The notes under the pieces: generated by a model
Told to the model about the DNA's origin: nothing
The model's database searches: none
What the model saw: only the letters and a program-made list of their open reading frames with translations
Assembly (NCBI GenBank): GCA_033762295.1
Contig: JANRLW010000062.1
Span: forward strand, 16,446 to 80,445
Origin: Capsulimonadales bacterium
Lineage (GTDB): Bacteria; Armatimonadota; Armatimonadia; Armatimonadales; Armatimonadaceae
Direction of reading: 5' to 3'
DNA: 64,000 nt
Shown here: positions 47,802-64,000 of the stretch, piece after piece
Layout of the letters: each line of letters starts with the position of its first letter
Numbering within the stretch: the first letter of the stretch is position 1
Translations under genes and position numbers: made by a program

Positions 47802-48614
47802 ATGAACAATGCATTGCTACGCGTTCTCGGATGGAAAGCGACCGTTCTGCACGGTGACCCGCTCTGCTATGACCGCTATCTCTGGCTGAAAAAGCATCTG
47901 CAGCCCGGTCCGCTCAGTACCCTGGACGCCGGATGCGGAAACGGGTGCTTCTCGTTCTACGCGGCCAGCGTCGGCAACCGGGTGCTCGGCCTCTCCTTCG
48001 ACGCGGAACAGAACGGCGCCGCCTCGGAGCGTGCGAAACTGCTGGGACTGACCAACGCGGAATTCCGGGTTCTGGACCTGCGCGACCTGCACACCGTACG
48101 CGATTCGCTGGGCGAATTCGATCAGATCATCTTGATGGAAACGATCGAGCATGTCATCAATGACCGCAAACTGGTCGCCGATCTATGCCACCATCTGAAA
48201 CCGGGCGGACGCCTTTACCTGACCACTCCTTATAAGGAGCATAAAGCCCTCCGACAGGAATACCTTTCGGAAACGGAGGACGGCGGTCATGTTCGCTGGG
48301 GATATACCCTGGGGGAAGTCCGAAACATCATGGAGTCATGCGGCCTTGAGGTGGTTGCGGAAGGCTACACCAGCGGCATGATCTCACAGAAACTGACCAA
48401 CCTGATGCGGGTCAGTGACTACCGGAACGAGAAGAAGGCCTGGGCCGCCTCCTTCCCGCTGCGGCTCTTTCAAATCACTCTGGATGCCCCCCTGACCCGA
48501 GCGATGAGCTACCCGCCGTTCGGCGTCGGTCTGGTCGGCGTCAAGAAGTCGTCGGTCGAGCCGACGGTCGGTTCGGCGCATTCCGAACGCGTTCCGGTCG
48601 GAGCCGGCCGATGA
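47802..48614 (+). CDS. Class I SAM-dependent methyltransferase
   Basis: LDAGCGNG, ETIEHV, LKPGGRL. Confidence 0.9.
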   Translation: MNNALLRVLGWKATVLHGDPLCYDRYLWLKKHLQPGPLSTLDAGCGNGCFSFYAASVGNRVLGLSFDAEQNGAASERAKLLGLTNAEFRVLDLRDLHTVRDSLGEFDQIILMETIEHVINDRKLVADLCHHLKPGGRLYLTTPYKEHKALRQEYLSETEDGGHVRWGYTLGEVRNIMESCGLEVVAEGYTSGMISQKLTNLMRVSDYRNEKKAWAASFPLRLFQITLDAPLTRAMSYPPFGVGLVGVKKSSVEPTVGSAHSERVPVGAGR

Positions 48615-50194
48615 GCGCGGTTTCGCGCGAGGGTCAGGGGTTTTCCGGTGTCGGGGCGACCGCGATCAGCCTCGGCACCTCCCCGGCGGGCGCGGCCGTC
48701 ATCACGACCGTCGTCGTCCTGCTGATCTCTCTCGTCGCCATGTTCGGCGGCGGAGAAACCCAGCGGTCCCTGCTAACCTTTTCGCTCGCCGCCATCCTTT
48801 ACGCCTCGATGGTCAATACCCCGTTCATCGGGGTGCCCCTGGCGTTGATTTACCTGAGTACGTTCAGCGTCGCCAAGCGTTACCTGATCCCGCTGCTGGG
48901 CTACTCCACCTATGACCCGCTGATTCTCGTCCAGCCGGTCATCATCTCCCTCTTCGTCGTCAACCTCCTGCTTCGCCGCCGGCTCCCGTTCGACACGCTT
49001 CTGTCGCGAATGATCGGCATCCTGCTGGTCATTATGATCCTGGAGATGGCAAACCCATTACAGGGCGGCATTCATATCAGTCTGGCAGGGGCCCTGTTTT
49101 ATATTATTCCGTTGCTCTGGTTTTATGGCGGACGTACCCTCGGCACCCACCGGGTGACCCGGGCCTTTGCCAATATCGTCATAATTACCGCAATCATGGG
49201 CGTACTCTACGCGTTTCGGCAACAGTTCTACGGTTTTACGGACGTGGAGAAGCAATGGCTCGAGCTGACCAAAAACGACGTCGGTCAGTACATCAGCAAC
49301 AACGTCATGCGCGTCTTCTCCTTTTTCAACTCGTTCGCCGAATACACGGGAGTCACTTCCATCGCGGCCATCTTCTGCTTCGTGCTTTTCCTGAACCGAA
49401 ACCGTCTCGCGATCTTTCCGTGGCTCCTTCTCATGACCGGGATTATCCTCTCCTCCAGTCGTGGCGCCTTACTCGGCACCCTTCTCGGCTGTTCGCTGGT
49501 CTGGGGTCTGCAGAGCCGAAATCCGCGCGCCTGGCTCCCCCGCCTGACGGTATCCCTCGTTCTGGGCGGATTCCTGCTCATCGCCGGCTTGAATCAGGCC
49601 CGTGACATCGAGACCAGCAACGATACGACCGATGCCCTTCTTCAATGGCAGGCCAAGGGAATTTTGAAGGCCGCCGACGCCCGGGAATCCACCGGTGTCG
49701 TCCATTCCAACCAGTTTTTTGATGGGGTCGTCCGTGGTTTCGTTCAGCCACTGGGCAACGGTCTGGGCACCACCACGATTGCCGGAGCGAAGTTCGGCGT
49801 CTATCTGGGGGCGGCGGCGGAAAACGACCTGGGCAACCTTTTCATCTCCTGCGGAGCCTTCGGCGGACTTCTCTACCTGGCGATCATGCTCTGGGCGATC
49901 TGGCGGACGGTCTGGGTCTGGCATCGTCACCGGACCTGGCTTTCGCTGGGAATCGTGGGAATGCTGGCGGCGACCGCCGGCACCTGGCTGATCGGAGGCC
50001 GTTACTCGCAGTGTATGATCATCTGGTTTCTGATCGGCTACGTGGACCGAGTGGACCGTGAGGATGACGAGCGGAAGAAACGGGCCGCCGTCGCGAAGGA
50101 AAAGGAGTCGGCGGGTGAGGAGACGGCGAAGGAATCCCTCACCTCGCCGGACAGTTCACCCAGTTCGCCCCAAACTCGGAAGGCGCAGAGCTAA
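48611..50194 (+). CDS. Wzy-like polysaccharide polymerase (multi-pass membrane protein)
   Basis: More than 10 TM segments; RVFSFF, SSSRG, PLGNGLG motifs; EPS operon context. Confidence 0.7.
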   Translation: MSAVSREGQGFSGVGATAISLGTSPAGAAVITTVVVLLISLVAMFGGGETQRSLLTFSLAAILYASMVNTPFIGVPLALIYLSTFSVAKRYLIPLLGYSTYDPLILVQPVIISLFVVNLLLRRRLPFDTLLSRMIGILLVIMILEMANPLQGGIHISLAGALFYIIPLLWFYGGRTLGTHRVTRAFANIVIITAIMGVLYAFRQQFYGFTDVEKQWLELTKNDVGQYISNNVMRVFSFFNSFAEYTGVTSIAAIFCFVLFLNRNRLAIFPWLLLMTGIILSSSRGALLGTLLGCSLVWGLQSRNPRAWLPRLTVSLVLGGFLLIAGLNQARDIETSNDTTDALLQWQAKGILKAADARESTGVVHSNQFFDGVVRGFVQPLGNGLGTTTIAGAKFGVYLGAAAENDLGNLFISCGAFGGLLYLAIMLWAIWRTVWVWHRHRTWLSLGIVGMLAATAGTWLIGGRYSQCMIIWFLIGYVDRVDREDDERKKRAAVAKEKESAGEETAKESLTSPDSSPSSPQTRKAQS

Positions 50195-51345
50195 TGAACG
50201 TGCGGCTTGCTGTGGTGACGCATAATGTCGTTCGCGGAGACGGCCAGGGAAGAGCCAACTACGAAATCGTTCGCCATGCCCTGAAGCGAGGATTTTCGGT
50301 CCATCTTTTCGCGGATCGAGTGGACGAGGATCTGATCGCGGCCGGCGCTGTCTGGAAACCGATTCAACCGGGCTTTCTGCGACGGATCAATCTCATCAAG
50401 GTCGCCTCTTTCGCGGCGCAGGCCGATCGTCTCCTCCGCAAGGCGCACGGAGAGTATGATGTCGTCCACGGGTATGGCTACTGCCTTTCCGTTCCGCATG
50501 ACGTCAATACCTCGCAGTTCGTTCACAGTGCCTGGCGGCAGTCGCCCGCCCATACCGCCCGCCAGCATCGGAACGCCTACGGGGCATATCAGTGGACCTA
50601 TTCCGCTCTCAATGCGGTCTGGGAACGCAAAGCGTACCATCGGGCGCGGCTGGTGGTCGCCGCCTCGTCGACCGTCCGGGAGGAACTGAAGCAGATCGGT
50701 ATTCCCGAAAAGCGTCTGCGAGTTATTCTCAACGGAGCCGATCTTTCCGAATTTCACCCCGCGACGCGCCCCGAAGAGAGGGAACGCGCCCCCCTCAAAC
50801 TGCCGGAGAACGTTCCCCTGGCGCTGTTTGCCGGGGACATCAAAACCCCCCGAAAAAACCTCGACACCGTCCTGAAGGCGATGGCGCTCCCGGAGGTCCG
50901 GGCGTCCGGTCTGCATCTGGCGGTCGTGGGACGCGCCGAAGGCAGTCCGTTCCCGGCGATGGCCGAGCAGCTGGGGATCGCGGATCGCGTTCACTTTCTG
51001 GATTTCCGGCGAGACATCGCGGCCATCATGCGAGCGGTCGATCTGTTCGTGTTCCCGTCCCGATACGAAGCCTGCGCCCTCGTGCTGGCGGAGGCGACCG
51101 CGTCCGGCCTGCCGATCATCACCGCTCGAACCACCGGCGGCGCGGAACTGGTGACCCCGGAGGCCGGAATTCAGGTGGACCATACCGAGGATGTCCACGG
51201 AATCGCCGCCGCGATGGCGCAACTGGCAGGCGACCCCGATCGCCGGGAACGGATGCGGCAGGCGGCGTGGCAACGCGCACAGACCAACACGTGGGAACAT
51301 ATAGCCGAACAGTATCTGAACGTCTATAACGAGTTTCGGAAGTGA
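50194..51345 (+). CDS. Glycosyltransferase family 4
   Basis: RKN; FVFPSRYEACALVLAEA (Ex7E). Confidence 0.92.
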   Translation: MNVRLAVVTHNVVRGDGQGRANYEIVRHALKRGFSVHLFADRVDEDLIAAGAVWKPIQPGFLRRINLIKVASFAAQADRLLRKAHGEYDVVHGYGYCLSVPHDVNTSQFVHSAWRQSPAHTARQHRNAYGAYQWTYSALNAVWERKAYHRARLVVAASSTVREELKQIGIPEKRLRVILNGADLSEFHPATRPEERERAPLKLPENVPLALFAGDIKTPRKNLDTVLKAMALPEVRASGLHLAVVGRAEGSPFPAMAEQLGIADRVHFLDFRRDIAAIMRAVDLFVFPSRYEACALVLAEATASGLPIITARTTGGAELVTPEAGIQVDHTEDVHGIAAAMAQLAGDPDRRERMRQAAWQRAQTNTWEHIAEQYLNVYNEFRK

Positions 51346-51395
51346 AATGAGCCGATGAGAAGCCGACGACAACCGGGCGGGAGCCGTTGCGAACC

Positions 51396-52616
51396 ATGAG
51401 AGTCCTAGTTGTCAGCCATTCCTGCGTGGTCGATGTCAACCAGCAGGTCTTTGTTGCGCTGACGCAACGACAGGGCATCGACGTCGGGCTTTTGATTCCG
51501 TCGCACTGGAAAAGCGATATCACCGGCGCACCCGTGGAGCCGCGTTTCCTCCCCGAAATCGCGACCCATGCCGTTCCGGTCATGACCGCACCGGTGCTTG
51601 CCCCCGGTCACATTACCTTCCACTGCTACAAATACCTGCCGATGACCGCCATTCGGGATTTCCGACCGGACCTGATCTTTTCGACCCAGGAGCCGTGGAG
51701 CCTGAGCAATCTGCAGGCGCTCCACCTCGCCTCTCGATTGGGATTGCCTTTCCTTTTTCAAACCAACCAGAACCTGAACAAAACGTACGCCCCGCCGTTC
51801 TCCTGGTTCGAACGTCTCTCCTACCGGCGAGCGTCGATGGCTCTCGCCTACTCCGAAGAAGCGCGTCAGGTGATGATTCGCAAGGGATTGACCGTCCCCT
51901 CGGAGGTCGTCCCGTATGCCACCGATACACGCCGTTTCCTGCCCCGGGAGACGACGGAACGACGGCGCACGCTCGGTATCGCCGATGCGACCGTCGTGGG
52001 GTACCTGGGACGACTGGTTCCCGAGAAGGGGCTTGATACGCTGATCGACGCGGTCGCGCGCCTGAAGACCGATCGACCCGTCAAGCTTCTCTTTGTCGGA
52101 GCCGGCCCTCAGGAGGCGGAGCTTCGTCAGCGAATAGCCGATGCGGGCCTGACCGAACAGGCCGTTTTCGCCGGGGTCGTTCCACACCACGAAGCCGCGG
52201 AGTACATGGCCTGTATGGACATTTTCGTCCTGCCGTCGCGCACCATGCCCAACTGGAAGGAACAGTTCGGGCGGGTCATCATCGAAGCGCTGGCCTGCCA
52301 TGTCCCGGTGATCGGCTCCGACAGCGGACAGATTCCGCACCTGCTTCGTGAGACGGGCGGCGGCATCATCTTTCGGGAAGGCGACGCCGACGACCTGGCC
52401 GGAAGCCTGAAACGGCTGATCGAATCGCCGGAGGAGCGGTCCCGACTGGCGGTCGGGGGCGCGCGTATCGTTGAGGAACGCTTCACCTGTGAGGCCGTCG
52501 CCGCTCAACTGCACCGAATCTTCGAAGGCGTCCTCGGCGCGACGCCGTCCGGCGCACCACGGCAGGACGCCGCTCGCGGTTCGCGGACCGCCTCGGAGGT
52601 CGGCAGACCCTCATGA
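51396..52616 (+). CDS. Glycosyltransferase family 4
   Basis: GRLVPEKG; EQFGRVIIEA. Confidence 0.92.
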   Translation: MRVLVVSHSCVVDVNQQVFVALTQRQGIDVGLLIPSHWKSDITGAPVEPRFLPEIATHAVPVMTAPVLAPGHITFHCYKYLPMTAIRDFRPDLIFSTQEPWSLSNLQALHLASRLGLPFLFQTNQNLNKTYAPPFSWFERLSYRRASMALAYSEEARQVMIRKGLTVPSEVVPYATDTRRFLPRETTERRRTLGIADATVVGYLGRLVPEKGLDTLIDAVARLKTDRPVKLLFVGAGPQEAELRQRIADAGLTEQAVFAGVVPHHEAAEYMACMDIFVLPSRTMPNWKEQFGRVIIEALACHVPVIGSDSGQIPHLLRETGGGIIFREGDADDLAGSLKRLIESPEERSRLAVGGARIVEERFTCEAVAAQLHRIFEGVLGATPSGAPRQDAARGSRTASEVGRPS

Positions 52617-53767
52617 AAGCCATTCTCCTCCCCAATATGGCGGAGTTTCCGGCCGTCAGCATGAAACGCTACGCGGCGGAACTGGAAGCGGCCCTGCCAC
52701 GCGTCGGCGGATCGGAGTGGGAGTTCGAGTCGTTGAACTGTCACCGTGTTAAATCGATCGAAAAACTTTTACCCGGAAAGCAGGGAGAGGCCTGGGCCAG
52801 TCGGGCGGCCCGGTTCATCACCTATCCCCGGATGGCCGCCGGAACCCGGGGCGAGGTTTATCATGTTCTGGATCACAGTCATGCCAACCTCATCCAGGCG
52901 CTGCCTCCGGACCGGGCCGTTCTTACCTGTCATGACATCATCCCCTATCTCGCCGCCCGCGGACTCGTCCCGATTCCGGTGTCACGCGTCACGGGAATCA
53001 CCTTTCCCCTGCTGCGCTTCCGGCCGATGCATCGTTGCCGCTTCATCATCTGCGACTCCGAAGCGACCCGTCAGGATCTGATCCGCTACGCCAACCTGCC
53101 GCCGGAACGACTGGTGACCGTTCATATCGGCATAAACTCGGTCTTTCATGCCGTCTCCGAAGAGGAAACGGCGCAAATCCGGGCGACGATCCGCACACGG
53201 CACCATCTGCCGCCCGATGCTCCGGTCATCCTTCAGGTAAGCACCGCCAACCGATACAAAAATACCCCCGCCCTTTTGCGCGCTCTCAAACGATTAACCG
53301 ATGAGGAGCGGTTCGGCGGCAACATCCATCTTCTTCGGATCGGCGCGGACCTGTTTCCCGAGGAGGAAGCCCTGGTCCGGGATCTGGGTTTGCGTGAGCG
53401 GATCGTCCAGGTAGGCCGCGTTAAAGAGGACCGCGACCTGGCCGATTACTACCGGGCCGCCGATGTCTTTGCCTTCCCCTCGCTCTGGGAAGGCTTCGGA
53501 CTGCCGCCCGCCGAGGCGCTCTGCTGCGGAACGCCCTCGGTCGTCTCCGCTGTCGCCTCCCTGCCGGAGGTGGTCGGGGAGGCCGGTCTGACCGTGCCGC
53601 CGACCGATGATGAGGCTCTGGCCGATGCACTGGACCGAGTCCTGAGTGACCCGGTTTTACGCGCCGATCTCCGGCGCAGGTGCCTGGAACGCGCCCAGCT
53701 CTTTACCTGGGACCGGTGCGCGCGCGGCATACTGTCCGTCTACGAGCGTGTCGTACGAGAGCGATAA
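52613..53767 (+). CDS. Glycosyltransferase family 4
   Basis: YKN; FPSLWEGFGLPPAEA. Confidence 0.92.
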   Translation: MKAILLPNMAEFPAVSMKRYAAELEAALPRVGGSEWEFESLNCHRVKSIEKLLPGKQGEAWASRAARFITYPRMAAGTRGEVYHVLDHSHANLIQALPPDRAVLTCHDIIPYLAARGLVPIPVSRVTGITFPLLRFRPMHRCRFIICDSEATRQDLIRYANLPPERLVTVHIGINSVFHAVSEEETAQIRATIRTRHHLPPDAPVILQVSTANRYKNTPALLRALKRLTDEERFGGNIHLLRIGADLFPEEEALVRDLGLRERIVQVGRVKEDRDLADYYRAADVFAFPSLWEGFGLPPAEALCCGTPSVVSAVASLPEVVGEAGLTVPPTDDEALADALDRVLSDPVLRADLRRRCLERAQLFTWDRCARGILSVYERVVRER

Positions 53768-53846
53768 TCGAATTTTACCGACGTTTCGAAAATATACCTG
53801 TTAAAATTACCAGCAACACCGGATTTCCGGTATAAAGAAGTGATCG

Positions 53847-55106
53847 ATGCAATTGTCGGCGATCGATAACCAGACCGCGAATCGTTCCCGTGTCCCGGGG
53901 GACACGGTGCCGACCCGGCGTTTCACGGTTCTATTCCTGGACCATACGGCCAAGTGGAGCGGGGGCGAGATCGCCCTGCTACGGACGCTGGAGGCATTGG
54001 ACCGTGATCGGTACCGAGCGGTCGTCGCTCTCGCCGCCGACGGTCCGTTTGCCGATCGTCTCCGGGAAATCGGCATCGAGACGCATATCTTACCGTTGTC
54101 CGAGGAGATGCGTGAGGTACGCAAGGGGAGTCTGGGCGGAGGGGGTCTCGCCGGTAAGTTTCGAGCGGCGGTAACGTTCGCCGGGTACGCCAACCGGATC
54201 GCGCGGTTCGCCCGTTCGATCGGCGCGGACCTGCTTCACTGCAATTCGCTGAAGGCGGACATCTACGGCGCGCTGGCCGGCAGGATCGCGCGAATCCCGG
54301 TCCTCTGGCATGTACGGGACCATATCGACCCGTCGTATTTGCCGGCGCCCGTCGTTCGCGTCTTTCGCCGACTGGCGAAATCCTGGCCGCAGTACGTCCT
54401 GACCAATTCGGAGAGCACACGTGCGGCGCTGTTTCCGGACGGTTCGGGGCAGCAGCGGGTAAAGGCGGTTCATGACGGCCTGTCCGAGACGGAATTAACC
54501 TCTCCGCCCCCGTCCGCCGGAACCGAATGGAAAAACTCACCGCCCCGAATCGGCATGGTGGGTAGACTGGTAGAGTGGAAGGGCCAGCACGTCTTTCTCG
54601 AAGCGGCGCTTCGCCTTTCGCAATCCGGTCGGCGGCTGGAGTTCGTCCTGATCGGCGCGGCCCTGTTTGGCGAAGAGGATTATGAAGCGCGACTGCGTCA
54701 GCAGGCGGAGGCGATTCGGTCGGCGGGCGGAGAGGTTGTCTTCACCGGGTTTCGTACCGACATCCGCGAACGTCTGCGGGATCTCGATATTTTCGTACAT
54801 GCCAGTATAACGCCGGAACCGTTCGGCCAGGTCGTGATCGAAGCGATGGCGGAGGGGTTACCGGTGATCGGAAGCGACGGGGGAGGCGTCCGGGAAATCC
54901 TGCGGACGGGAGAAACGGGTATCCTTACCCCGATGAACGATGCGGTCGCTCTGGGACAGGCCATAGAACGGTTACTGGATAATCCGGCGGAGGCCGGACG
55001 GCTCTCCGGCGCGGGCTATGCCGAGGTTCGCTCACGATTCACCGCCGCGCATAACGCTCGTCAGGTGGAAGCGGCTTACGAGGAAATGCTGGGCCGTAAG
55101 GCCTGA
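53847..55106 (+). CDS. Glycosyltransferase family 4
   Basis: GRLVEWKG; EPFGQVVIEAM. Confidence 0.92.
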   Translation: MQLSAIDNQTANRSRVPGDTVPTRRFTVLFLDHTAKWSGGEIALLRTLEALDRDRYRAVVALAADGPFADRLREIGIETHILPLSEEMREVRKGSLGGGGLAGKFRAAVTFAGYANRIARFARSIGADLLHCNSLKADIYGALAGRIARIPVLWHVRDHIDPSYLPAPVVRVFRRLAKSWPQYVLTNSESTRAALFPDGSGQQRVKAVHDGLSETELTSPPPSAGTEWKNSPPRIGMVGRLVEWKGQHVFLEAALRLSQSGRRLEFVLIGAALFGEEDYEARLRQQAEAIRSAGGEVVFTGFRTDIRERLRDLDIFVHASITPEPFGQVVIEAMAEGLPVIGSDGGGVREILRTGETGILTPMNDAVALGQAIERLLDNPAEAGRLSGAGYAEVRSRFTAAHNARQVEAAYEEMLGRKA

Positions 55107-55159
55107 TGTCGTCCGTTCGACCAATTCGGACGGACGAGGGATGGTTAAGACCGAAGCTT

Positions 55160-56365
55160 ATGAAAATCGCGATAGTTCATGATTACCTGGCGCAAGCCGG
55201 TGGTGCGGAACGGGTGGTCGAAGCCATGCATGAGCTTTGGCCGGAGGCGCCGATCTATACTTCCGTCTATGATCCGCAGGCGACCCTGCCGTCCTTCCGC
55301 CAGATGGATATCCGGACGTCGTTCCTGCAACGCTTCAAATTCGCGCGTCAGGCGAAGACGCATAAGTATGTGCTTCCGCTCTTCCCGCTCGCCTTCGAGC
55401 ACTTCGACCTGCGCGGTTTCGACGTCGTTCTCTCGCACACGACCTCCTTTGCCAAAGGGGTCATCACCGAGCCGGAGACCTGCCACATCTGCTATTGTCA
55501 TACGCCGTCCCGGTTCGCCTGGAGATATCATGAGTATATCTCCCAGGGCAACTACGATTCCCACCTGCGCTCCGCCCTTCCGTTTCTCGTCCATTTTCTG
55601 CGCAACTGGGATCTGAATGCCGCGCACCGGGTCGACTACTTCCTCTCGAACTCACACAACATCGCCCGACGGGTCAGGAAATACTACAGCCGTGACAGCG
55701 AAATCCTGTACCCGCCGGTGGAAACCCGCCGATTCAACGTCGAACCGGCCCCTTCCGCAGACTACTACCTGGTCGTCTCCCGACTCCAGGTATACAAACG
55801 AGTGGACCTGGCGATACAGGCGTGCAACAAACTGAAAGCGCCTTTGAAAATCGTCGGCGGCGGTCCCGAACTCGCCCGCCTGAAGGCGATGGCGGGGCCG
55901 ACCGTCGAGTTTCTCGGTCGGGTTCCGGACGGTCAGGTCGAGTCACTCTTTGCCAACTGCCGCGCGTTTCTCTTTCCCGGCGAGGAGGACTTCGGCATCG
56001 CTCCGCTGGAAGCGATGGCCAGCGGTCGCCCCGTCATCGCCTTTGGCAGCGGCGGCGCGCTCGAAACCATCGTCGAAGGCGTGACCGGCCTTTTCTTTTG
56101 CGAACAGACGGCCGATAGCCTGGCGGATGCGATTCAGCGATTGAACGCCATGCCGATCGACCCCCGGGTCATTCGCGAGCATTCCGAACAGTTCGATACC
56201 CGGCAATTCCACCGCCGTCTGCAGAACCTTGTCGAACTCTGTCTGGCCGATCATCGGCAACATATGTCACCGCCCCGGCCCCGTGTCTCCGGTTTGTCGC
56301 TGCAGCCGCGCCTCAACGGCACGTCGAAAGCGCGACATACGGAAGCCGTCGGGCACGATGCCTGA
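55160..56365 (+). CDS. Glycosyltransferase family 4 (WbaZ/mannosyltransferase-like)
   Basis: MKIAIVHDYL...GGAERV; EDFGIAPLEAM; an alternative start exists at 55106. Confidence 0.92.
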   Translation: MKIAIVHDYLAQAGGAERVVEAMHELWPEAPIYTSVYDPQATLPSFRQMDIRTSFLQRFKFARQAKTHKYVLPLFPLAFEHFDLRGFDVVLSHTTSFAKGVITEPETCHICYCHTPSRFAWRYHEYISQGNYDSHLRSALPFLVHFLRNWDLNAAHRVDYFLSNSHNIARRVRKYYSRDSEILYPPVETRRFNVEPAPSADYYLVVSRLQVYKRVDLAIQACNKLKAPLKIVGGGPELARLKAMAGPTVEFLGRVPDGQVESLFANCRAFLFPGEEDFGIAPLEAMASGRPVIAFGSGGALETIVEGVTGLFFCEQTADSLADAIQRLNAMPIDPRVIREHSEQFDTRQFHRRLQNLVELCLADHRQHMSPPRPRVSGLSLQPRLNGTSKARHTEAVGHDA

Positions 56366-56385
56366 CCACGATCGGAGCGAACGGT

Positions 56386-58353
56386 GTGAACGATCCCGAC
56401 AACCGAACCACCGACCCACGCCAGAGCGGGCAGGAACGCCGACGGCCCGCCGCCATCGACCCATGGGAAGCCCGGGAGCGGGAACGGGAACGGTTCCGCC
56501 GGGGCCGGTCGTCACGACGTCCCCGACCTGACCGGGAGGAGGTCTGGTCAAGCGCGGATTTCAACTTCCGGGAGAACTTTCTCGTTTTCGGGATTCTTCT
56601 GACCATCGTTCTCCTGATCGGGTCCGGTATGGCACGCTTTTCCGATGCCAACCGCTACCTGATGCTTCAGGTAGGCACCTTCCTGGTTCTCCTCCTGCTT
56701 GGAACCTGCCGGAGTTTTCAGGAGAACGTTTTTCCGGCGCTCGGTCGGGACCCTAACCCCTGGCTCCTCGGACTCACCGTCTGGACCGGTATCGCCTTCG
56801 CTCTCAGTCCCTACCGCAACTTCGCGGCCACGGAAATGCTGCGCGTCATCAGCGGCGTCGGCGTCTATTTCGTCACCGCCTACACCTTGCGCTCCCCGCG
56901 TCAGGTCTCGTTCGTCCTGTCCGGCATTCTCGGGCTGGGCGTTCTGCTTTCGCTGTATGACCTTTCTCAGGCGGGAAAGCCGGGCGCGCATTTGAACGAT
57001 ATGTTCTCGCTGCTGGGAACGCACGAGCACGCGGGATCGGTTCTGACGCTTTTGCTCCCGGTGGCGCTGGTCTTTGCCATCCATCCGGACATCGAGGAGA
57101 AACGCCGTCTTGCCGCCACCGCAGCCGGGCTGATCCTCGCTGTGGCCCTCCTGTCGTCCCGGTTTCGATCCGGATGGGTGGCGACCCTGCTCGCCGTTCT
57201 GATTCTGGCCATCCTTCATTTCCGGTATTTCCGCTCGGGGGAAAGGGACGATCGCCCGGACCGCCGTCCGGCCTGGCAAAAGGCCCTCCTCTCCCCGGTC
57301 GTTCAGGTACTGGTCGCTCTGACGGTCTTTCTCGTGCTGACCAATCTCGCCCCGCTGGTCTCACAGCGCGCCTCACTGCTTAACCTGCGCGATGACGCCG
57401 CCTTTGCCGGCCGTTTATCGATCTGGGAGGGGACGATCGGTATGATCCGGGACCGGCCGCTCCTCGGTTGGGGCCTGGGTTCCTTTCCCGTTCTGCAGGG
57501 CTGGTATACGCATATCGGCGACGATATGGCGGTCGTTCTGGCCAAGGGAACCACCCACGATAATAATGCCCACAGCTACTATCTGCAGTGGACGGCGGAA
57601 GCGGGTCTCATCGGGCTGTTCCTGCATATCGGGGTTCTGGCCTCGTTCGTTCTGACCGCACTGTACTCCATTCCCCGTCTCAAAACGCCGTTTCAGACGG
57701 CCCTGATCTCCGGCACTCTGGCGGCGGTGCTGGCGTCTCTGGTCGATTCGCTCTCCTCCCCGATGTATCACTTTGCCGGTATTCAGGCGATCCAGTACGC
57801 CTGGATCGGTCTGGGAATCGCCGCCATTCGCCCGATTCCGCGTACGGGGAGCGCGCCCGGTCCGACCACGCTTCATCCCTCGTTGACGTATCGCATCGGA
57901 GGTGCGCTCGCCGCTCTCCTGACGGTCGGCGCGGTCGGATTCTGGGTATGGCGCACCGGGGAGCGGCATCGCACCATGCCTCCCGGAACGTTTCAAATCA
58001 TCGCAGAGCCGATCGGTCCGGTCGCCCCCGGTACGACGGTTTACTGGCGGGCGGTCTTTTCCGACGCGCAGGGTATCGCCCAGCCGACGTTGCCCGGAAC
58101 GCTCTGGACGGTTCAGGGAGGCGACTCCTGGCGAAACGCCGACCAGGAGCTTCGGGAGATACGGGAGGCGGAGCCGATCCACCCGCCTCCGGGCTACTAC
58201 GCTCCGCGCCCGTCTCCCCGGCAATCGCTGTTCTCGGTACTGATACCGGGCGAGATCGGGGCGGCGAGCGTCCGAGTGAAAGCGACCTACCGGGACCGTT
58301 ACGGGCGAATCTACGAAGCGTGGTCGGAAAAGTCGATCCGCTCCCGTCGGTAA
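56386..58353 (+). CDS. O-antigen ligase / O-oligosaccharyltransferase-like protein with C-terminal soluble domain
   Basis: RSGW, RLSIW, PLLGWGLGSF, AHSYYLQWTAEAGLIG. Confidence 0.87.
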   Translation: MNDPDNRTTDPRQSGQERRRPAAIDPWEARERERERFRRGRSSRRPRPDREEVWSSADFNFRENFLVFGILLTIVLLIGSGMARFSDANRYLMLQVGTFLVLLLLGTCRSFQENVFPALGRDPNPWLLGLTVWTGIAFALSPYRNFAATEMLRVISGVGVYFVTAYTLRSPRQVSFVLSGILGLGVLLSLYDLSQAGKPGAHLNDMFSLLGTHEHAGSVLTLLLPVALVFAIHPDIEEKRRLAATAAGLILAVALLSSRFRSGWVATLLAVLILAILHFRYFRSGERDDRPDRRPAWQKALLSPVVQVLVALTVFLVLTNLAPLVSQRASLLNLRDDAAFAGRLSIWEGTIGMIRDRPLLGWGLGSFPVLQGWYTHIGDDMAVVLAKGTTHDNNAHSYYLQWTAEAGLIGLFLHIGVLASFVLTALYSIPRLKTPFQTALISGTLAAVLASLVDSLSSPMYHFAGIQAIQYAWIGLGIAAIRPIPRTGSAPGPTTLHPSLTYRIGGALAALLTVGAVGFWVWRTGERHRTMPPGTFQIIAEPIGPVAPGTTVYWRAVFSDAQGIAQPTLPGTLWTVQGGDSWRNADQELREIREAEPIHPPPGYYAPRPSPRQSLFSVLIPGEIGAASVRVKATYRDRYGRIYEAWSEKSIRSRR

Positions 58354-58394: not shown

Positions 58395-58430
58395 ACGGGG
58401 TCGCTTTCCGTATAGGGAAAGCGACCCCGT
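58395..58430. terminator. Bidirectional terminator between convergent genes
   Basis: ACGGGGTCGCTTTCC / GGAAAGCGACCCCGT 15-bp stem. Confidence 0.8.
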
Positions 58431-58464: not shown

Positions 58465-59211
58465 CTACGGCGTTGCCGGTGCGGCCGGATCGATGACGCG
58501 TCCGATCGGATGGATACCGGCGTTGCTGGCCGGGATGTCGGTCTCGATGATACGGACATCGTTGATGGTCAGCACATCGCCCGCCATCTTCACGGTGACG
58601 GTCTTGCCGTTGATCGTCGGGTACTCCTTGCCCGCGCTCAGGCCCTTCACTTCGGACTTGAGCTGGTCGATGGTGTACTTGCCCTTGATGATGTGGTTGC
58701 CGAGCAACTGAGCGAGCATCGCCTTATTTTCCGGCTTGGAAAGTTCCTGGATCTTGGCATCGCCGAGATCGGCGAACGCGGCGTTGTTCGGGATGAACGC
58801 GGTAAATTCGCCCGGCTGTCGCAGTTCTTCCTTCAGACCGGCAAGGTCGGCATACTGAGCGAACTTGTTCAGGTCATCACGACCGTTGAGGACATCCCAG
58901 AGCGATTCGGTGCTGTCCTGATTGTTGTTATTATTGGTCGGCGTGCCGGCGGGAACCGAGCCACCACCGCCCGAAGCGCCACCGCCGCCACCGGAAACCG
59001 CCGGAGCCGTCGCCGTGGAGTACAGGCCATAACCGACGGCAATCGCCGCCACGCCACGAATGATGTTGCGACCCGTGCTGCCGGAACCCGACCGACCGCC
59101 GTAACCGTCGCGCGCGAGGGCGATGCCACCATTCATCGGAATCTGCGTCGCAATCGCTCCTGCAATCGTCAGCGCAACCGCGAAGCGAATGATGCGATTC
59201 TTCAACTCCAT
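58465..59211 (-). CDS. Secreted fasciclin (FAS1) domain protein
   Basis: Signal peptide; FTAFIPNNAAF; DIPASNAGIHPIGRVI; Gly/Asn linker. Confidence 0.92.
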   Translation of the reverse strand: MELKNRIIRFAVALTIAGAIATQIPMNGGIALARDGYGGRSGSGSTGRNIIRGVAAIAVGYGLYSTATAPAVSGGGGGASGGGGSVPAGTPTNNNNNQDSTESLWDVLNGRDDLNKFAQYADLAGLKEELRQPGEFTAFIPNNAAFADLGDAKIQELSKPENKAMLAQLLGNHIIKGKYTIDQLKSEVKGLSAGKEYPTINGKTVTVKMAGDVLTINDVRIIETDIPASNAGIHPIGRVIDPAAPATP

Positions 59212-59449: not shown

Positions 59450-60199
59450 TTATTTGCCTCCGGGGCGATACCGAACCAGTTCCTTTTCCACCAGAATATT
59501 ACCGACATACAGCCGTTGCCGGACCATTCCCACCCCCGGAGCGAACCAGCGCGTCATCGGAAACGCGAACGGCTTTCCCTCGATCGTCGTCCGGATGACC
59601 GTCTCCACCCGCCATGCCCCGAACTCGCCCGCCGGCGTCTTCACGATCTCCTGAGCGCTGACCCGACTGTACGCGGTCCCCGGCGTCCGCACCTTACGAA
59701 ACTGCAATACGCCGATCCAGTCCTGCTCCGCCCCCTCCCGCACCGGCAGACGCATCAACGGCAACGGCGGCACCATCGTGACCCGATCGCCCAGGCCGGC
59801 GGCTACCTGACGCACCTGCTCCGAGGAGACGTCGAAAATCTCCGCTCGAAACGGTTTTCCGTTCTTACGAATCTCAAATACCGTCCCCGGATTCGGTCCG
59901 TCGGACGTTTTTCCGACAATGACCTCCTCCTCTTCCTCGCGCAGCACCTGATCCTTGATCGCGTCGTCGATCACCTGACGGCGATGGGTCGTCACATGCC
60001 ACTGGAAACGGTCCTTCTCCCGCGTCGGCAACACCGGCCCGGCTTTCATCGGCACCGAAGGCGTCGGCTTACCCGGAATACGAATAAACGAGGTATCCGT
60101 TCCCTTATTCTCCGCGTGGTCCATCCCGCAGCCGGCGCAGGCCAGCAACGCCAGCGCTCCGATCCGCCCCCCGTGACGATCCGGTCGCACCCCTTTCAT
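59450..60199 (-). CDS. Putative lipoprotein, cassette copy B (DUF3108/TapB-like beta protein)
   Basis: Lipobox LACAGC; EIVKTPAGEF...RWFAPGVGMVR. Confidence 0.75.
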   Translation of the reverse strand: MKGVRPDRHGGRIGALALLACAGCGMDHAENKGTDTSFIRIPGKPTPSVPMKAGPVLPTREKDRFQWHVTTHRRQVIDDAIKDQVLREEEEEVIVGKTSDGPNPGTVFEIRKNGKPFRAEIFDVSSEQVRQVAAGLGDRVTMVPPLPLMRLPVREGAEQDWIGVLQFRKVRTPGTAYSRVSAQEIVKTPAGEFGAWRVETVIRTTIEGKPFAFPMTRWFAPGVGMVRQRLYVGNILVEKELVRYRPGGK

Positions 60200-60888
60200 T
60201 TCAACGGCTCCAATCCGGCGTCCCGGCGCAGCGCCTGGTAAATGGTTCGGGATATCTCCTCCACATTCCGTTGCGCCTGGACCCCATCGGGGTCATCCGG
60301 ACGGATAAACGCATGTATCCGCATCAGGCATGTCTGACGACCGATCACGACCGCGCCCAGGCCGGTGTCGAAACGCGCCAGCATATCCCGGTAGTTGCCC
60401 ATGCGGGCGGACGTATCCGTGCTGCCGTCCCGGCTCTGCTGCCAGTAGTACATCAGCATTCGCACCGCGCCATCCCGCCGACGAAAGATCATCGCGCGAA
60501 TCTTTCCGCTCCCCGGTCCGTCCAGGGGAAAGATCTCCCGCGCGGTCATCGAGAAGTTTCCCCCTCCGGCGATACAGACCATCGGGTCGTGGTAGTTCTC
60601 AAAAGGCCCGACCGCCATGACCGACGCATACACTCGCTCCCCCAACGGATTGACGTACATCTTGGAGATGGTCGGCGGATTCCCCAACCCTTCCAGAATT
60701 TCCGCCGCGATCGGTGAATCGATGCTCTCCCAGTGCCCGATCGTGTTCGGAATGGCCGGAACCCACTCCCCGGCGTGACGGAACCGGGCGGACGCGAAGC
60801 CGCCGAACAACGCCACCAGAAGGATCGCCACTCCCATCGCGGCCAGGGGACGCCGACCGGGAAATATCGGAGCGGTATCGGGAACCAT
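60196..60888 (-). CDS. Exosortase-associated EpsI-family protein, copy B
   Basis: TM anchor; IPNTIGHW, YHDPMVC..GGG, MYYWQQ. Confidence 0.8.
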   Translation of the reverse strand: MVPDTAPIFPGRRPLAAMGVAILLVALFGGFASARFRHAGEWVPAIPNTIGHWESIDSPIAAEILEGLGNPPTISKMYVNPLGERVYASVMAVGPFENYHDPMVCIAGGGNFSMTAREIFPLDGPGSGKIRAMIFRRRDGAVRMLMYYWQQSRDGSTDTSARMGNYRDMLARFDTGLGAVVIGRQTCLMRIHAFIRPDDPDGVQAQRNVEEISRTIYQALRRDAGLEPLK

Positions 60889-60923
60889 GACTTTCCACCT
60901 TTCCAAACCGCCGGAGCGACCGG

Positions 60924-62123
60924 CTAACGCCGCCGCCGCTTCCTGCGCGACAGCATACGGAATCCTTTTTCGATCGCCATCTCCGACCGTTTCCATCCGG
61001 CCGCCAGAACTCCGAACGGATTGACTCGAACGGGCGGCCGGCGCGGGGCGTGTTTCGGTCGATCGGCGACGGTCGCCGTCGGAGGCGCGACCACCGTGGA
61101 AGCGGGTGGCTCCGGCGCAGGTTCGGCGGTCGACACCGATGCTCTCCGAGGACGCGCCTTTTTCATCGCGCGACGTAACGCGACCTGACGCCCTGCCCGA
61201 GTCACTCCCGCCTCGATCGCCAGGCTCAACGCCAGCGATAGACCTCCCATCAACAGGAGAATCCAGCCGTTATGGGCCAGCAGACGGGAAAGCTCCGTGG
61301 CATTGCCCCCCATCATTCCGGCGACCATGACACGAATCAGGTTCAGTCCGGCAGTGAGCAGAACGCTCAACAGCAGAACGCTCAACAGCTCCGTCAGACG
61401 GAGCAGACTGAACCCTCCGGCCATTCCCCGGCAAAAGAGCAGCAGCAGGTTCAGGGACAGCACACCCAGGCCGGCCTGAGCGGACAGATAATCGACCGTA
61501 TACCCGCGTTCCGAAAAGATCAGCGTGTCCGCCTTGTCGGGAGAGGTATAGGCCGAGACGTGAAGCCACCGGAAAAGCGCGGCGGCGGCGCTCAGGGTTA
61601 CCCGACCGCAGAGACGCATGACCATTTCCGCGATCGAATCCGGCGGAGGAACGGCGAGCAGCGAAAAGGCCATCGACAGACCGAGCGCCTTCAGGATACG
61701 CGCCCCGAAAAACCGGTAGACGACTCCCCAGGCGATCAAGAGCAGTCCGATCACGGCCAGCCCTTTGATCTGTACCAGATGAGCAAACGCCAGAACGCCG
61801 ATTCCCAGAGCGAACGGCAGCGCGTTGCCACGCATCAGGAACCCCTGGCTCGACCGTTTACCGTACCGTTTCCAAACCTGGGTCACCCGGTCTCGCTTGG
61901 TCCACGCCAGATAGACCGCCAGTACCGGAACGAACGGCTGAAAAAACAGGACATACGCCGGGTTTGTCCACCGATTCCAGGACCAGACGAACGGCAACCA
62001 CCAGGCCAGCAGGTACGGGGCGAGTACGACCAGCCAGATCGCATGGCGTCGGAAAAACATCAGGCGCGGGTCCGTCGCCGTCGTCGGCGGGCTGTTTTCG
62101 ATCGTGGCGGCATTGGTCGACAT
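60924..62123 (-). CDS. Exosortase-family membrane protein, copy B, apparently lacking catalytic Cys
   Basis: Multi-TM; LLAVPPPD, SAQAG (expected xACSG), NLIRV, LAHNG. Confidence 0.75.
   Translation of the reverse strand: MSTNAATIENSPPTTATDPRLMFFRRHAIWLVVLAPYLLAWWLPFVWSWNRWTNPAYVLFFQPFVPVLAVYLAWTKRDRVTQVWKRYGKRSSQGFLMRGNALPFALGIGVLAFAHLVQIKGLAVIGLLLIAWGVVYRFFGARILKALGLSMAFSLLAVPPPDSIAEMVMRLCGRVTLSAAAALFRWLHVSAYTSPDKADTLIFSERGYTVDYLSAQAGLGVLSLNLLLLFCRGMAGGFSLLRLTELLSVLLLSVLLTAGLNLIRVMVAGMMGGNATELSRLLAHNGWILLLMGGLSLALSLAIEAGVTRAGRQVALRRAMKKARPRRASVSTAEPAPEPPASTVVAPPTATVADRPKHAPRRPPVRVNPFGVLAAGWKRSEMAIEKGFRMLSRRKRRRR
61357..61389. repeat. Exact 15-bp in-frame tandem duplication
   Basis: AGCAGAACGCTCAAC x2 plus AGC; encodes a repeated LLSVL. 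Confidence 0.9.
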
Positions 62124-62128
62124 AGCGG

Positions 62129-62866
62129 TTACTGTCCTCCGAAGCGGACGACTTCGGCGGAGGCCGGGTTTTTCATTTCCGCATACCCTCTCCGCACAAA
62201 TCCGACGCCGGGAGCGAACCAGCGGGCTGAAGGAAACTTGATCTGCCCGTCCCCCAGGGCGATCATCGTATCCACCCGGAGGGTCTTGAAGACGGCGGCG
62301 GGCGTCTGGACCGTCTCCTGCCCCGAAATTCGGGACAGGGCGCGGGCCGCCAGAGTCTCCCCACGGATCGTGAACGTTCCCGCCCAGTTCAGATAATCGC
62401 CTTCCCGCACCGGATATTTGAACAGCGGAACCGGGGGCGAATAGCGCATCAACTCCGAGTTCTCATCCTGGGCGGCGACCAGTTCCAGAACGGGACCGTT
62501 CATCCGGTAGACTTCGCGACGCCAGGTCTTCCCGTTTCTCAGGATTCGGATCTCGGTCGCGGCAATTCCGCCGACGGTGATCGGCCCATGAACCACATAG
62601 CGGTCACGGGTTACGGTCACCTCGCTCGACCCGACGTTCTGGCGGTAGGCCATCATCTCCCAGAAATTCCCCTTTTTCAGGGACAGGAGGGGATTGTCGA
62701 GTGTCGCCGTCATTGCCGTTCCGGAAGGACTCTCCAGAATCGCGATATCGGGGCCGGAGGGACGTATCTCGTTCTCGCATCCGGCCGAACCGACCGCCGC
62801 CAGCGCCGCCCAGACGCAGAGCGACCGACGGCTCCGGTTCCGTTTCGACCCGTCAGGAGGGGTCAT
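62129..62866 (-). CDS. Putative lipoprotein, cassette copy A
   Basis: Lipobox GSAGC; ETVQTPAAVF...RWFAPGVGFVR; paralogue of 59450..60199. Confidence 0.75.
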   Translation of the reverse strand: MTPPDGSKRNRSRRSLCVWAALAAVGSAGCENEIRPSGPDIAILESPSGTAMTATLDNPLLSLKKGNFWEMMAYRQNVGSSEVTVTRDRYVVHGPITVGGIAATEIRILRNGKTWRREVYRMNGPVLELVAAQDENSELMRYSPPVPLFKYPVREGDYLNWAGTFTIRGETLAARALSRISGQETVQTPAAVFKTLRVDTMIALGDGQIKFPSARWFAPGVGFVRRGYAEMKNPASAEVVRFGGQ

Positions 62867-63561
62867 GACCCGGTTCCTTTCCGTCCCTGCTCCTTCAACG
62901 AGTCATGGATCGCCCGGCAGACTTCATCCATGTTCCGGCGCGACTGGACACCGTTGCGATCATTCGGCAAAATACTGACCCAGACACGGACGACGCAGTT
63001 TTCCGTGCCCCGCAGGGTCGCCTCCGCGCCGAGACGAACGCGCGTCAGAAGGTCCTCTTTCTGCGTGAGAGATTCCGTCGCGCTCGTGCGGCCATCCCGA
63101 TACTGCACCCAGTAGTACATCAAGACGCGATCGTTGCCCTCGACGCCCCGAAACACCAGGCCGCGAACACCGCCGTCCTTACCGAAAAGCGGAATCTCCC
63201 GCTGTGCGGTCAGGCCGTAGCGATAACGCGCCATAAAGACTTTCGGGTCAAGATAGGATTCAAAATCGCTCGTCGCGAACACCTGCGCCTGAACCCGCTC
63301 CTCGAAGACGTTGGAGAACTCGACGCCCCGGCTGAGCGGGTTTCCGAGCGCTTCCAGTGCGATCCGGGGGACGTCCTTCCGAGCGCCGATCCAGCTACCG
63401 ATCTCGGTCGGCAGTTCGGGCAGCCACCGTCCCCGCTGCTGAAGGCGAATTCCGATCACAAAGAGCAGGATCGCCGTCACACCGAAGACGACCGTCAGGC
63501 CGACGAAGGTCGGACGATGGACCGGTATCGCGGTTTCCGCTCGCGGTACGGGAAGGGCCAT
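62863..63561 (-). CDS. Exosortase-associated EpsI-family protein, copy A
   Basis: LPTEIGSW, LEALGNP, MYYWVQYRDG; paralogue of 60196..60888. Confidence 0.78.
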   Translation of the reverse strand: MALPVPRAETAIPVHRPTFVGLTVVFGVTAILLFVIGIRLQQRGRWLPELPTEIGSWIGARKDVPRIALEALGNPLSRGVEFSNVFEERVQAQVFATSDFESYLDPKVFMARYRYGLTAQREIPLFGKDGGVRGLVFRGVEGNDRVLMYYWVQYRDGRTSATESLTQKEDLLTRVRLGAEATLRGTENCVVRVWVSILPNDRNGVQSRRNMDEVCRAIHDSLKEQGRKGTGS

Positions 63562-64000
63562 CAGCGTATTCCCTCTCCCTCACCGGGATGGCGAAGTTGG
63601 CGCGGACGGAACCGATCGACCAGCCAGCGTACCGGGAAGAACGCGATCAGAACCGGAATCCAGAAGCTGATCCGCCCGACGCCGGTGCCGAAATCGGGAT
63701 TGGAGTTGATCGCCACCGCCATGATCCACAGTCGAACGAAGTTGACGACCAGAGCCACCAGGAGGCCAAGAACCAGCAGAACGGGGTAGTTGTAGTATCG
63801 AACCCCCCGTCGCAGCGCCAGCCAGACCGTCAGTACCAGCACCGCGATGGAAACATTCAACCCGCTCAACTCCGAGGAGATGACCAGGTGGGTATTCGGC
63901 AGCGTGACCACATTTCCCATCGTGGCGACCTGCGGGAAGATCGGCCGAAGCGCGAGTCCCAGTCCCACCGCATTCCCTACCTGAAACGGCAACAGAACAT
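63561..64000 (-). CDS. Exosortase-family membrane protein, copy A, 5' truncated by window edge, apparently lacking catalytic Cys
   Basis: LPFQ...GNVVTLPNTHLVISSELSGL (expected ACSG)...VNFVRL. Confidence 0.75.
   Translation of the reverse strand, partial: VLLPFQVGNAVGLGLALRPIFPQVATMGNVVTLPNTHLVISSELSGLNVSIAVLVLTVWLALRRGVRYYNYPVLLVLGLLVALVVNFVRLWIMAVAINSNPDFGTGVGRISFWIPVLIAFFPVRWLVDRFRPRQLRHPGEGEGIR

Follow-up and report, generated by a model that had tools for sequence, protein, structure and literature searches.

We identified a six-gene operon at the end of a 64,000-nucleotide stretch of DNA (the window) from a Capsulimonadales bacterium of the family Armatimonadaceae (GenBank assembly GCA_033762295.1, contig JANRLW010000062.1, positions 16,446 to 80,445 of the forward strand). 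The operon is an unnamed conserved variant of the exosortase system, in which two tandem modules each encode an exosortase-like membrane protein, an EpsI protein and a lipoprotein; by membership it is not an active exosortase, and it is built on the scaffold of one. Sequence comparison indicates that both exosortase copies are very probably conserved pseudo-enzymes, and the second EpsI protein, EpsI-B, carries a His/Cys/Arg site that appears to be the sole chemically active site left in the operon of this genome. Haft et al. (2006, PMC1569441) describe the exosortase triad as invariant, EpsI as having no known function and the periplasmic nucleophile as unknown, and a second source states that it is unknown for these enzymes whether anchoring is a single step of transpeptidation (10.1101/2023.06.07.544157). 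Our literature search, whose coverage did not include Haft, Payne and Selengut (2012, J Bacteriol), found no account of Cys-less exosortases, of an EpsI active site or of this operon. Its genes and their key residues are as follows.

63561..64000, minus strand: probable pseudo-exosortase A, C-terminal half (PF09721 positions 145-220, 21.6 bits; alignment)
Contig C60, 43996-44563, plus strand: almost certainly pseudo-exosortase A, N-terminal half (PF09721 positions 4-119, 39.4 bits)
62863..63561, minus strand: EpsI-A, degenerate (Leu104 and Phe109 at the family His and Cys positions; no Pfam match alone)
62129..62866, minus strand: lipoprotein A, lipobox Cys30, predicted open beta-barrel of DUF3108-like / YmcC(GfcB)-like fold (PF21347 21.4 bits, under the cut-off)
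60924..62123, minus strand: probable pseudo-exosortase B, with Gln216 (Cys column), Arg264 and Ala283 (His column) (PF09721 38 bits, cut-off 25.7)
60196..60888, minus strand: EpsI-B, one N-terminal membrane helix and a predicted Mog1/PsbP-like domain (PF11984 45.4 bits)
60591-60589 and 60576-60574, minus strand: EpsI-B codons for His100 and Cys105 (Arg190 is the third invariant residue)
59450..60199, minus strand: lipoprotein B, lipobox Cys24, predicted tether motif at residues 31-42 (about 60109-60074) (PF21347 34.2 bits, cut-off 27)

The six open reading frames run from 64000 down to 59450, abutting or overlapping, in the order exosortase-like A, EpsI-A, lipoprotein A, exosortase-like B, EpsI-B and lipoprotein B. 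These are the two coupled triads that a sequence-only reading of the window had described, and the shared motifs on which it relied are all present: LEALGNP/LEGLGNP and MYYWVQYRDG/MYYWQQSRDG in the EpsI pair, and TPAAVF/TPAGEF and RWFAPGVG in the lipoproteins. The paralogy is far beyond chance for both the EpsI proteins (34% identity, E 8e-44) and the lipoproteins (31% identity, E 4e-28). Both exosortase genes had been taken as intact; copy B is whole, but half of copy A is absent from the window, as contig C62 stops at position 64000. Its missing first half is almost certainly an open frame found where contig C60 ends: this frame overlaps copy A by 6 bases and continues its reading frame, so that copy A would be intact across the gap between the two contigs. 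An alpha/beta hydrolase gene lies upstream of the copy A start on C60, as it does before the operon in loci L057, L059 and L084. A promoter scan gave matches at chance level, and a search for terminator-like hairpins gave 6 sites against 4.5 in shuffled sequence.

Both copies are exosortase homologues by profile, since copy B and the N-terminal half of copy A exceed the PF09721 cut-off, with the C-terminal half of copy A alone falling below it. The catalytic Cys is replaced by Leu in copy A (TTG, 63869-63867) and by Gln in copy B (CAG, 61478-61476); both residues align exactly with the Cys column of intact exosortases, and the Cys-x-Gly motif is missing, while Asn-x-x-Arg is kept as NFVR in copy A and NLIR in copy B. 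This bears out the central observation of the sequence-only reading, as does the Gly found in the His column (His-x-x-x-Gly) of copy A. Its suggestion that copy B keeps a His fails: the His column holds Ala283, the neighbouring His284 is one residue off, and only 5 of the 60 B-type homologues have His in that column. Another Cys of copy B might have filled the active site; Cys172 and Cys231 do not, each being Cys in 3/60 orthologues. The two copies score 27.8 and 24 bits on TIGR02602 (cut-off 105.55), reach no named subfamily cut-off and fit no NCBIfam exosortase subfamily; the intact A orthologues tested likewise reach none. Copy B shows several hydrophobic stretches across residues 25-300. 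A word-indexed protein search with copy B returned no match, and a sequence search of solved structures with the exosortase alignment gave nothing significant.

Conservation of the dead copies was assessed in an alignment of 70 distinct locus proteins, 144 of 150 profile-search matches (6 duplicates removed) and 5 proteins of the window's genome. Removal of 12 rows that were short or gappy, 28 near-duplicates and 23 superfluous outgroup rows left 156, from which the tree was built with the catalytic columns left out; database proteins without gene context were assigned to A or B by tree position. All three catalytic residues are intact in 28/28 outgroup and 14/14 basal proteins, in 11 of the 54 members of the A grade and in none of the 60 members of the B clade (support 99 in the Shimodaira-Hasegawa-like approximate likelihood ratio test). 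By these alignments, catalysis was lost early and throughout exosortase B and in several lineages of exosortase A, including that of the window, and copy A is thus facultatively dead. The Cys column holds 14 different residues in B and 12 in dead A, a randomisation rather than the adoption of one new nucleophile; Arg264 is kept in 43/60 B and 37/43 dead A proteins. In the eight closest pairs, the dead exosortases have a ratio of nonsynonymous to synonymous substitution rates (dN/dS) of 0.08-0.20, similar to that of neighbouring genes; among four more distant pairs, several are near saturation and one is raised (L061/L062, 0.38-0.41). These substitution patterns show both dead exosortases to be maintained by selection, and the survey of the Cys column in orthologues, mostly Cys-less and under purifying selection, upholds the earlier view of conserved pseudo-enzymes that each have their own EpsI and lipoprotein in a recurrent operon.

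Selection has not been uniform along the protein. In the N-terminal half, 24 columns are conserved at 70% or more in B and 23 in dead A, against 25 in live exosortases, and the corresponding numbers in the catalytic C-terminal half are 4, 4 and 40. The alignment of the short families XrtK, XrtS and ArtE (153-163 profile positions) with full-length exosortases is confined to the C-terminal half, so exosortases have two separable halves; these families keep the catalytic half alone, whereas the operon's proteins conserve the opposite one. The N-terminal half may therefore be a separable scaffold, and among the roles suggested for the dead copies (scaffold, adaptor, lipid handling, regulation) the conservation pattern favours the first. 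Four fusion proteins of 658-689 residues (L135:578-2554, L136:6399-8375, L144:5320-7389 and L145:497-2482) combine an unknown secreted N-terminal domain, a half exosortase-like membrane domain and EpsI; by eye, and with a weak profile score, they keep the N-terminal exosortase half and an EpsI with the His/Cys motif. None of the three scanned had a Pfam match, and the Atlas gave no usable match for the N-terminal domain of L135. B-type proteins also have a long C-terminal tail (median 108 residues, against about 40 in others), which in the window (60924-61230, minus strand) holds an apparently amphipathic helix and a terminal basic run and is perhaps a membrane-localisation signal.

EpsI-B matches PF11984 above the cut-off of 26.1 and scores 21.2 bits on TIGR02914, below its cut-off of 42.8; EpsI-A can be assigned to EpsI only through its similarity to EpsI-B. 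Each adjoins an exosortase homologue. In EpsI-B the motif His-x-Pro-x-x-Cys, which was derived in the present analysis and is not a published criterion, reads HDPMVC, and His100, Cys105 and Arg190 are invariant in 120/120 homologues. EpsI-A has LDPKVF at this place and is itself degenerate, a point absent from the sequence-only reading. Where they could be read, EpsI partners of intact exosortases carry the motif, one with Ala for Pro (a few are truncated or unresolved), and Arg is usual at the position of Arg190. An obligate intramolecular disulfide for Cys105 was rejected, since 35 of the 120 homologues have no second Cys in the domain. Structure prediction gave EpsI-B a mean predicted local distance difference test score (pLDDT) of 90 and a Mog1/PsbP-like fold (best Z 8.6, root-mean-square deviation (rmsd) 4.3, 143 residues aligned, tied with several other matches). 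Its likeness to Mog1p/PsbP-like domains (1jhs, PsbP, DcrB, LpqN; Z 7-8.6) lies near a level common to unrelated matches, and we know of no His-x-Pro-x-x-Cys site in such domains. Foldseek found no match for EpsI at E 0.001, comparison of the EpsI sequence with solved structures gave nothing significant (two weak rows, E 0.22 and 0.86), and an Atlas search with EpsI-B returned EpsI-family clusters only.

The EpsI motif tends to disappear together with exosortase catalysis. Among the 34 A and C-type modules in which both traits were readable (one further module is truncated), both sites are intact in 14, both are lost in 20 and none is mixed. One genus holds both states: L039 has both sites intact, and in L040 the exosortase Cys has become Ser and the EpsI His has become Arg. 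In another Armatimonadota family, 15 loci (L196:6135-9395 and L228-L241) carry a dead exosortase with a dead EpsI and no lipoprotein, in tandem behind a live pair in six of them. The EpsI changes there are His to Arg in 15/15, Cys to Tyr in 14/15 and Arg190 to Asp in 15/15. An approximately unbiased test rejects grouping this clade with dead A (p 0.0002), which argues for a separate origin. The exchange of charges, His to Arg with Arg190 to Asp, hints that residues 100 and 190 lie close together. Across 74 hand-picked pairs, 11 have an intact motif beside a dead exosortase, and two active fusions of XrtA type (P0119 and P0124) have an EpsI-like domain without the His/Cys motif; two EpsI subtypes may exist. 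From these comparisons, loss of the EpsI motif appears, outside the XrtA subtype, to go along with a dead partner, but a dead partner does not entail the loss.

The lipoproteins are predicted barrels. The nearest folds to the model of lipoprotein A (pLDDT 86.8) are 4fvs (Z 11.1, rmsd 4.9, 172 aligned) and 3fzx, followed by YmcC (2in5; Z 9.1, rmsd 4.1, 154 aligned), which we take to be GfcB, and by LolA and LprG; the likeness to carriers of the LolA/LprG/GfcB type spans Z 7.9-9.1. As in these DUF3108-like, YmcC-fold and LolA/LprG proteins, the fold is an open beta-barrel (Foldseek E 8e-7 and 1e-6) and the protein is lipid-anchored; unlike them, the operon's lipoproteins, at 11-15% identity, carry a predicted EpsI-docking tether. 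No link of such proteins to exosortases was found in the literature searched. The lipobox Cys is invariant in 16/16 lipoprotein B orthologues.

Complex prediction supports binding of lipoprotein B by EpsI-B. The pair scored 0.76 against 0.01 for the best of three controls; of 157 solved complexes, 116 attain the mark used, against 2 of 215 mismatched pairs, counts that are a rough guide with our own alignments. At least 85% of contacts agreed between runs, with a partner pLDDT of at least 84, and the score is less likely to reflect a memorised structure because sequence searches found no solved EpsI relative. In the model, lipoprotein residues 31-42 contact a face of EpsI to which neither His100 nor Cys105 belongs. 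With a motif profile of this tether and a threshold score of 8, which was our own choice, 15 of 19 A lipoproteins outside the training set and 3 of 6 C-type lipoproteins were recognised, against 2 of 42 homologues unlinked to EpsI. On the EpsI side, the columns at the interface are conserved among the A, B and C proteins but not in other EpsI proteins. The tether lies 12-16 residues from the lipidated Cys in 16/16, and several C-type partners have an apparent membrane helix in place of the lipobox; this closeness and these helices suggest that the lipoprotein sits on the inner membrane, the same membrane as EpsI. In another family, arrays of 3-4 barrel lipoprotein paralogues occur (L178-L187; 20/20 genomes matched). 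No exosortase was near in the two of these loci that were read completely, where the array is flanked by what we take to be a SecD-like gene on one side and rodA/ftsK-like genes on the other; the idea that the lipoprotein family is exosortase-specific was rejected on account of these arrays.

The Armatimonadaceae are soil and freshwater bacteria, and copy B was matched in 13/13 sampled genomes of the family. The complete set of six genes lies on a single contig in nine of these (in one of the nine, the contig end truncates copy A); two others have five genes, with lipoprotein B missing, and in the remaining two the operon is interrupted by contig ends. An EpsI profile matched 32/32 family genomes, 30 of them at E <1e-66, a count that includes a third, intact paralogue. 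With EpsI-B as the query, 185,579 species genomes gave 26 loci, all labelled Armatimonadota and several Armatimonadaceae or Armatimonas, the labels from which the family name is taken. The third paralogous module (L132-L134, L139, L117, L053) has the order lipoprotein, exosortase, EpsI with intact catalytic residues, and its exosortase and EpsI are often fused. It likely represents the ancestral state; profile searches did not find it in the window's genome, which is 94% complete. In one genus an intact exosortase-EpsI fusion lies divergently just upstream of the dead operon (L042:12281-14395, L043:11327-13099, L048:3092-5143).

We also examined the relation of the operon to conventional protein sorting. 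Elsewhere in the genome three exosortases keep Cys, Arg and His and are each followed by EpsI; nothing lies past 64000 on contig C62. Of the 43 PEP-CTERM matches listed, 42 exceed the cut-off, and PEP-CTERM proteins occur in 19/19 family genomes, although in the window's genome the three intact exosortases also explain them. Intact exosortases were present in all five family genomes checked. With three intact exosortases and 42 PEP-CTERM matches elsewhere in the genome, ordinary PEP-CTERM cleavage would be independent of the operon. Like the exosortase/EpsH-EpsI system (PF09721, TIGR02602; PF11984, TIGR02914), the operon has a homologous, probably multi-pass membrane protein with EpsI directly after it, keeps Asn-x-x-Arg, occurs with PEP-CTERM proteins in the same genome and, in part of the family, lies near exopolysaccharide (EPS) genes. 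Unlike that system, its exosortase copies lack the Cys-x-Gly and His motifs and score below the TIGR02602 and subfamily cut-offs, and the operon has a tandem duplication, a dedicated barrel lipoprotein and one degenerate EpsI.

Beyond the operon, the window contains the following neighbouring features.

58465..59211, minus strand: secreted fasciclin-domain protein (PF02469, 92.8 bits)
58395..58430, unstranded: 15-bp hairpin where the fasciclin and EPS genes converge (resembles a terminator on either strand, by consensus match only)
47802..58353, plus strand: glycosylation/EPS genes for a methyltransferase, a Wzy-like protein, five GT4 glycosyltransferases and an O-antigen-ligase-like protein (profile matches)

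The EPS genes thus lie on the opposite strand to the operon, past the fasciclin gene and the hairpin. In a neighbour scan of relatives that covered 52 of 157 candidate open reading frames, the order operon, fasciclin, O-antigen-ligase-like gene and GT4 block was kept in L057, L060 and L076, fasciclin alone followed the operon in L059 and L084, and neither fasciclin nor the ligase/GT4 block was among the scanned neighbours in L063, L066, L067, L069, L086 and L137. The adjacency to an EPS/glycosylation locus proposed from the sequence is therefore real here and in three relatives, but a constant link was rejected since only some relatives keep it. The fasciclin protein is possibly a client of the operon or its seventh gene. 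In all seven orthologues viewed, its signal peptide is immediately followed by a Gly-rich stretch, which is conserved, and another hydrophobic helix. These features might form an N-terminal anchor or sorting signal, and the protein may be akin to GfcA/YjbE.

Taken together, these results suggest an inner-membrane complex in which the pseudo-exosortases scaffold EpsI-lipoprotein pairs and EpsI-B performs the only active chemistry, a reading to which we give an even chance. The ancestor would have been a unit of active exosortase, EpsI and barrel protein, whose duplication in the Armatimonadaceae would have produced modules A and B. The products would form a complex facing the periplasm, in which each EpsI is predicted to hold its lipoprotein on the same membrane by the short tether 12-16 residues from the lipid anchor. 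The dead exosortases would serve as the membrane scaffolds of these pairs, a part of the proposal that we consider reasonably probable. EpsI-B may then act after cleavage by the intact exosortases, taking the cut PEP-CTERM protein or its lipid or glycan acceptor, and the lipid-anchored product may be handed to the LolA/GfcB-like barrel for onward transport. A thiol relay of EpsI-B in surface-protein sorting is a tentative suggestion, on the unlikely side. More speculative still is a general version, in which EpsI would be a His-Cys-Arg enzyme for a missing second step of PEP-CTERM processing: its Cys would accept the acyl-protein after the exosortase cut and transfer it to a lipid or glycan, the EpsI-docked barrel would extract the product, and the Armatimonadaceae operon would be a transfer-and-export station whose proteases have turned into scaffolds and whose EpsI-B works in trans for active exosortases.

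Several observations weigh against this proposal. Independent contrasts for the co-loss are few and not significant (2-3 in the set of 34 modules, p 0.5; 3 across families, p 0.25), although none points the opposite way. The coupling is also not universal, as P0119 and P0124 are active without the motif, and the B modules, P0030 and P0069 are dead with it. Part of the EpsI-B loci were found with a pattern that contains the His, which biases the His count; the Cys count and loci L037-L055 are free of this bias. The Mog1/PsbP-like matches of EpsI are mostly binding proteins and not enzymes. In addition, one divergent genus has no lipoprotein B and no tether motif in lipoprotein A (0/5), and the same lipoprotein family occurs without an exosortase in other families.

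The strongest alternative, which we rate about as improbable as the general transfer enzyme, is that the operon is an adaptor or regulator without chemistry of its own. The dead modules would bind the membrane helices of PEP-CTERM proteins or form hetero-oligomers with active exosortases and in this way direct or restrain processing, with the EpsI His and Cys as a metal or redox site that only serves the Cys of an active exosortase. Inactive rhomboid-like proteins act as adaptors and regulators in a comparable way. Among the proteins with a PsbP/Mog1 fold are chaperones and others that bind partners (DcrB, EagT6, SciW), tandems of live and dead pairs arose twice (A/B and the six tandem loci of the other family), joint loss of the EpsI His/Cys and the exosortase Cys fits redox protection, and the dead copies mostly retain Arg264. 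Yet the EpsI-B triad is invariant with no active exosortase in the operon, and the catalytic half, where a substrate would bind, is the part that decays.

Less probable again is that the complex no longer takes part in protein sorting but serves the adjacent Wzy/O-antigen-ligase pathway by handling lipid-linked glycans or lipids, its barrel playing the part of GfcB in the group 4 capsule system. It would suit a barrel fold that resembles YmcC and LolA/LprG and the operon-fasciclin-ligase-GT4 order shared with three relatives; GfcB acts in capsule export complexes (PMC8592465). However, the fold scores are middling, six other operon loci have no ligase/GT4 block among their scanned neighbours, and because intact relatives keep the full protease triad, the ancestral job was proteolytic.

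That the copies are active enzymes with another nucleophile is very improbable and largely refuted: Ser stands in the Cys column of 7/60 B and 3/43 dead A proteins, L040 has Ser with Arg and His, and in one B protein (P0058) a Cys and a His lie no more than two residues from the columns, but no replacement of the Cys is consistent, the window has Leu and Gln with the His lost as well, the catalytic half keeps 4 conserved columns and the Cys residues of copy B are unconserved, so a Ser substitution or a relocated Cys was rejected. Strain-specific decay or assembly error has almost no likelihood left and is refuted for the family, since the break in copy A at the contig end, the raised dN/dS of L061/L062 and the apparent frameshifts in copy A of L063/L140 and in L141 stand against a conserved operon with open frames and dN/dS mostly below 0.2. 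In L141 (7295-9557) the module is broken into several frames, possibly by true decay or by sequencing error.

In conclusion, the operon of the Armatimonadaceae amounts to a natural mutagenesis series, in which the catalytic half of the exosortase is set apart from the half that is retained as a probable scaffold. Three EpsI residues stand out as vanishing together with catalysis, and a predicted EpsI partner and a docking motif can be named. An open question becomes testable through the EpsI site, the joint loss of this site with catalysis and the predicted barrel partner; the function of EpsI and the receiver of the cleaved protein become questions for point mutants in any tractable PEP-CTERM organism. 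The operon also carries a caution, as genes annotated as exosortases are often not proteases. Overall, the conserved His and Cys of EpsI-B may point to an unrecognised chemical step in placing proteins on the cell surface.

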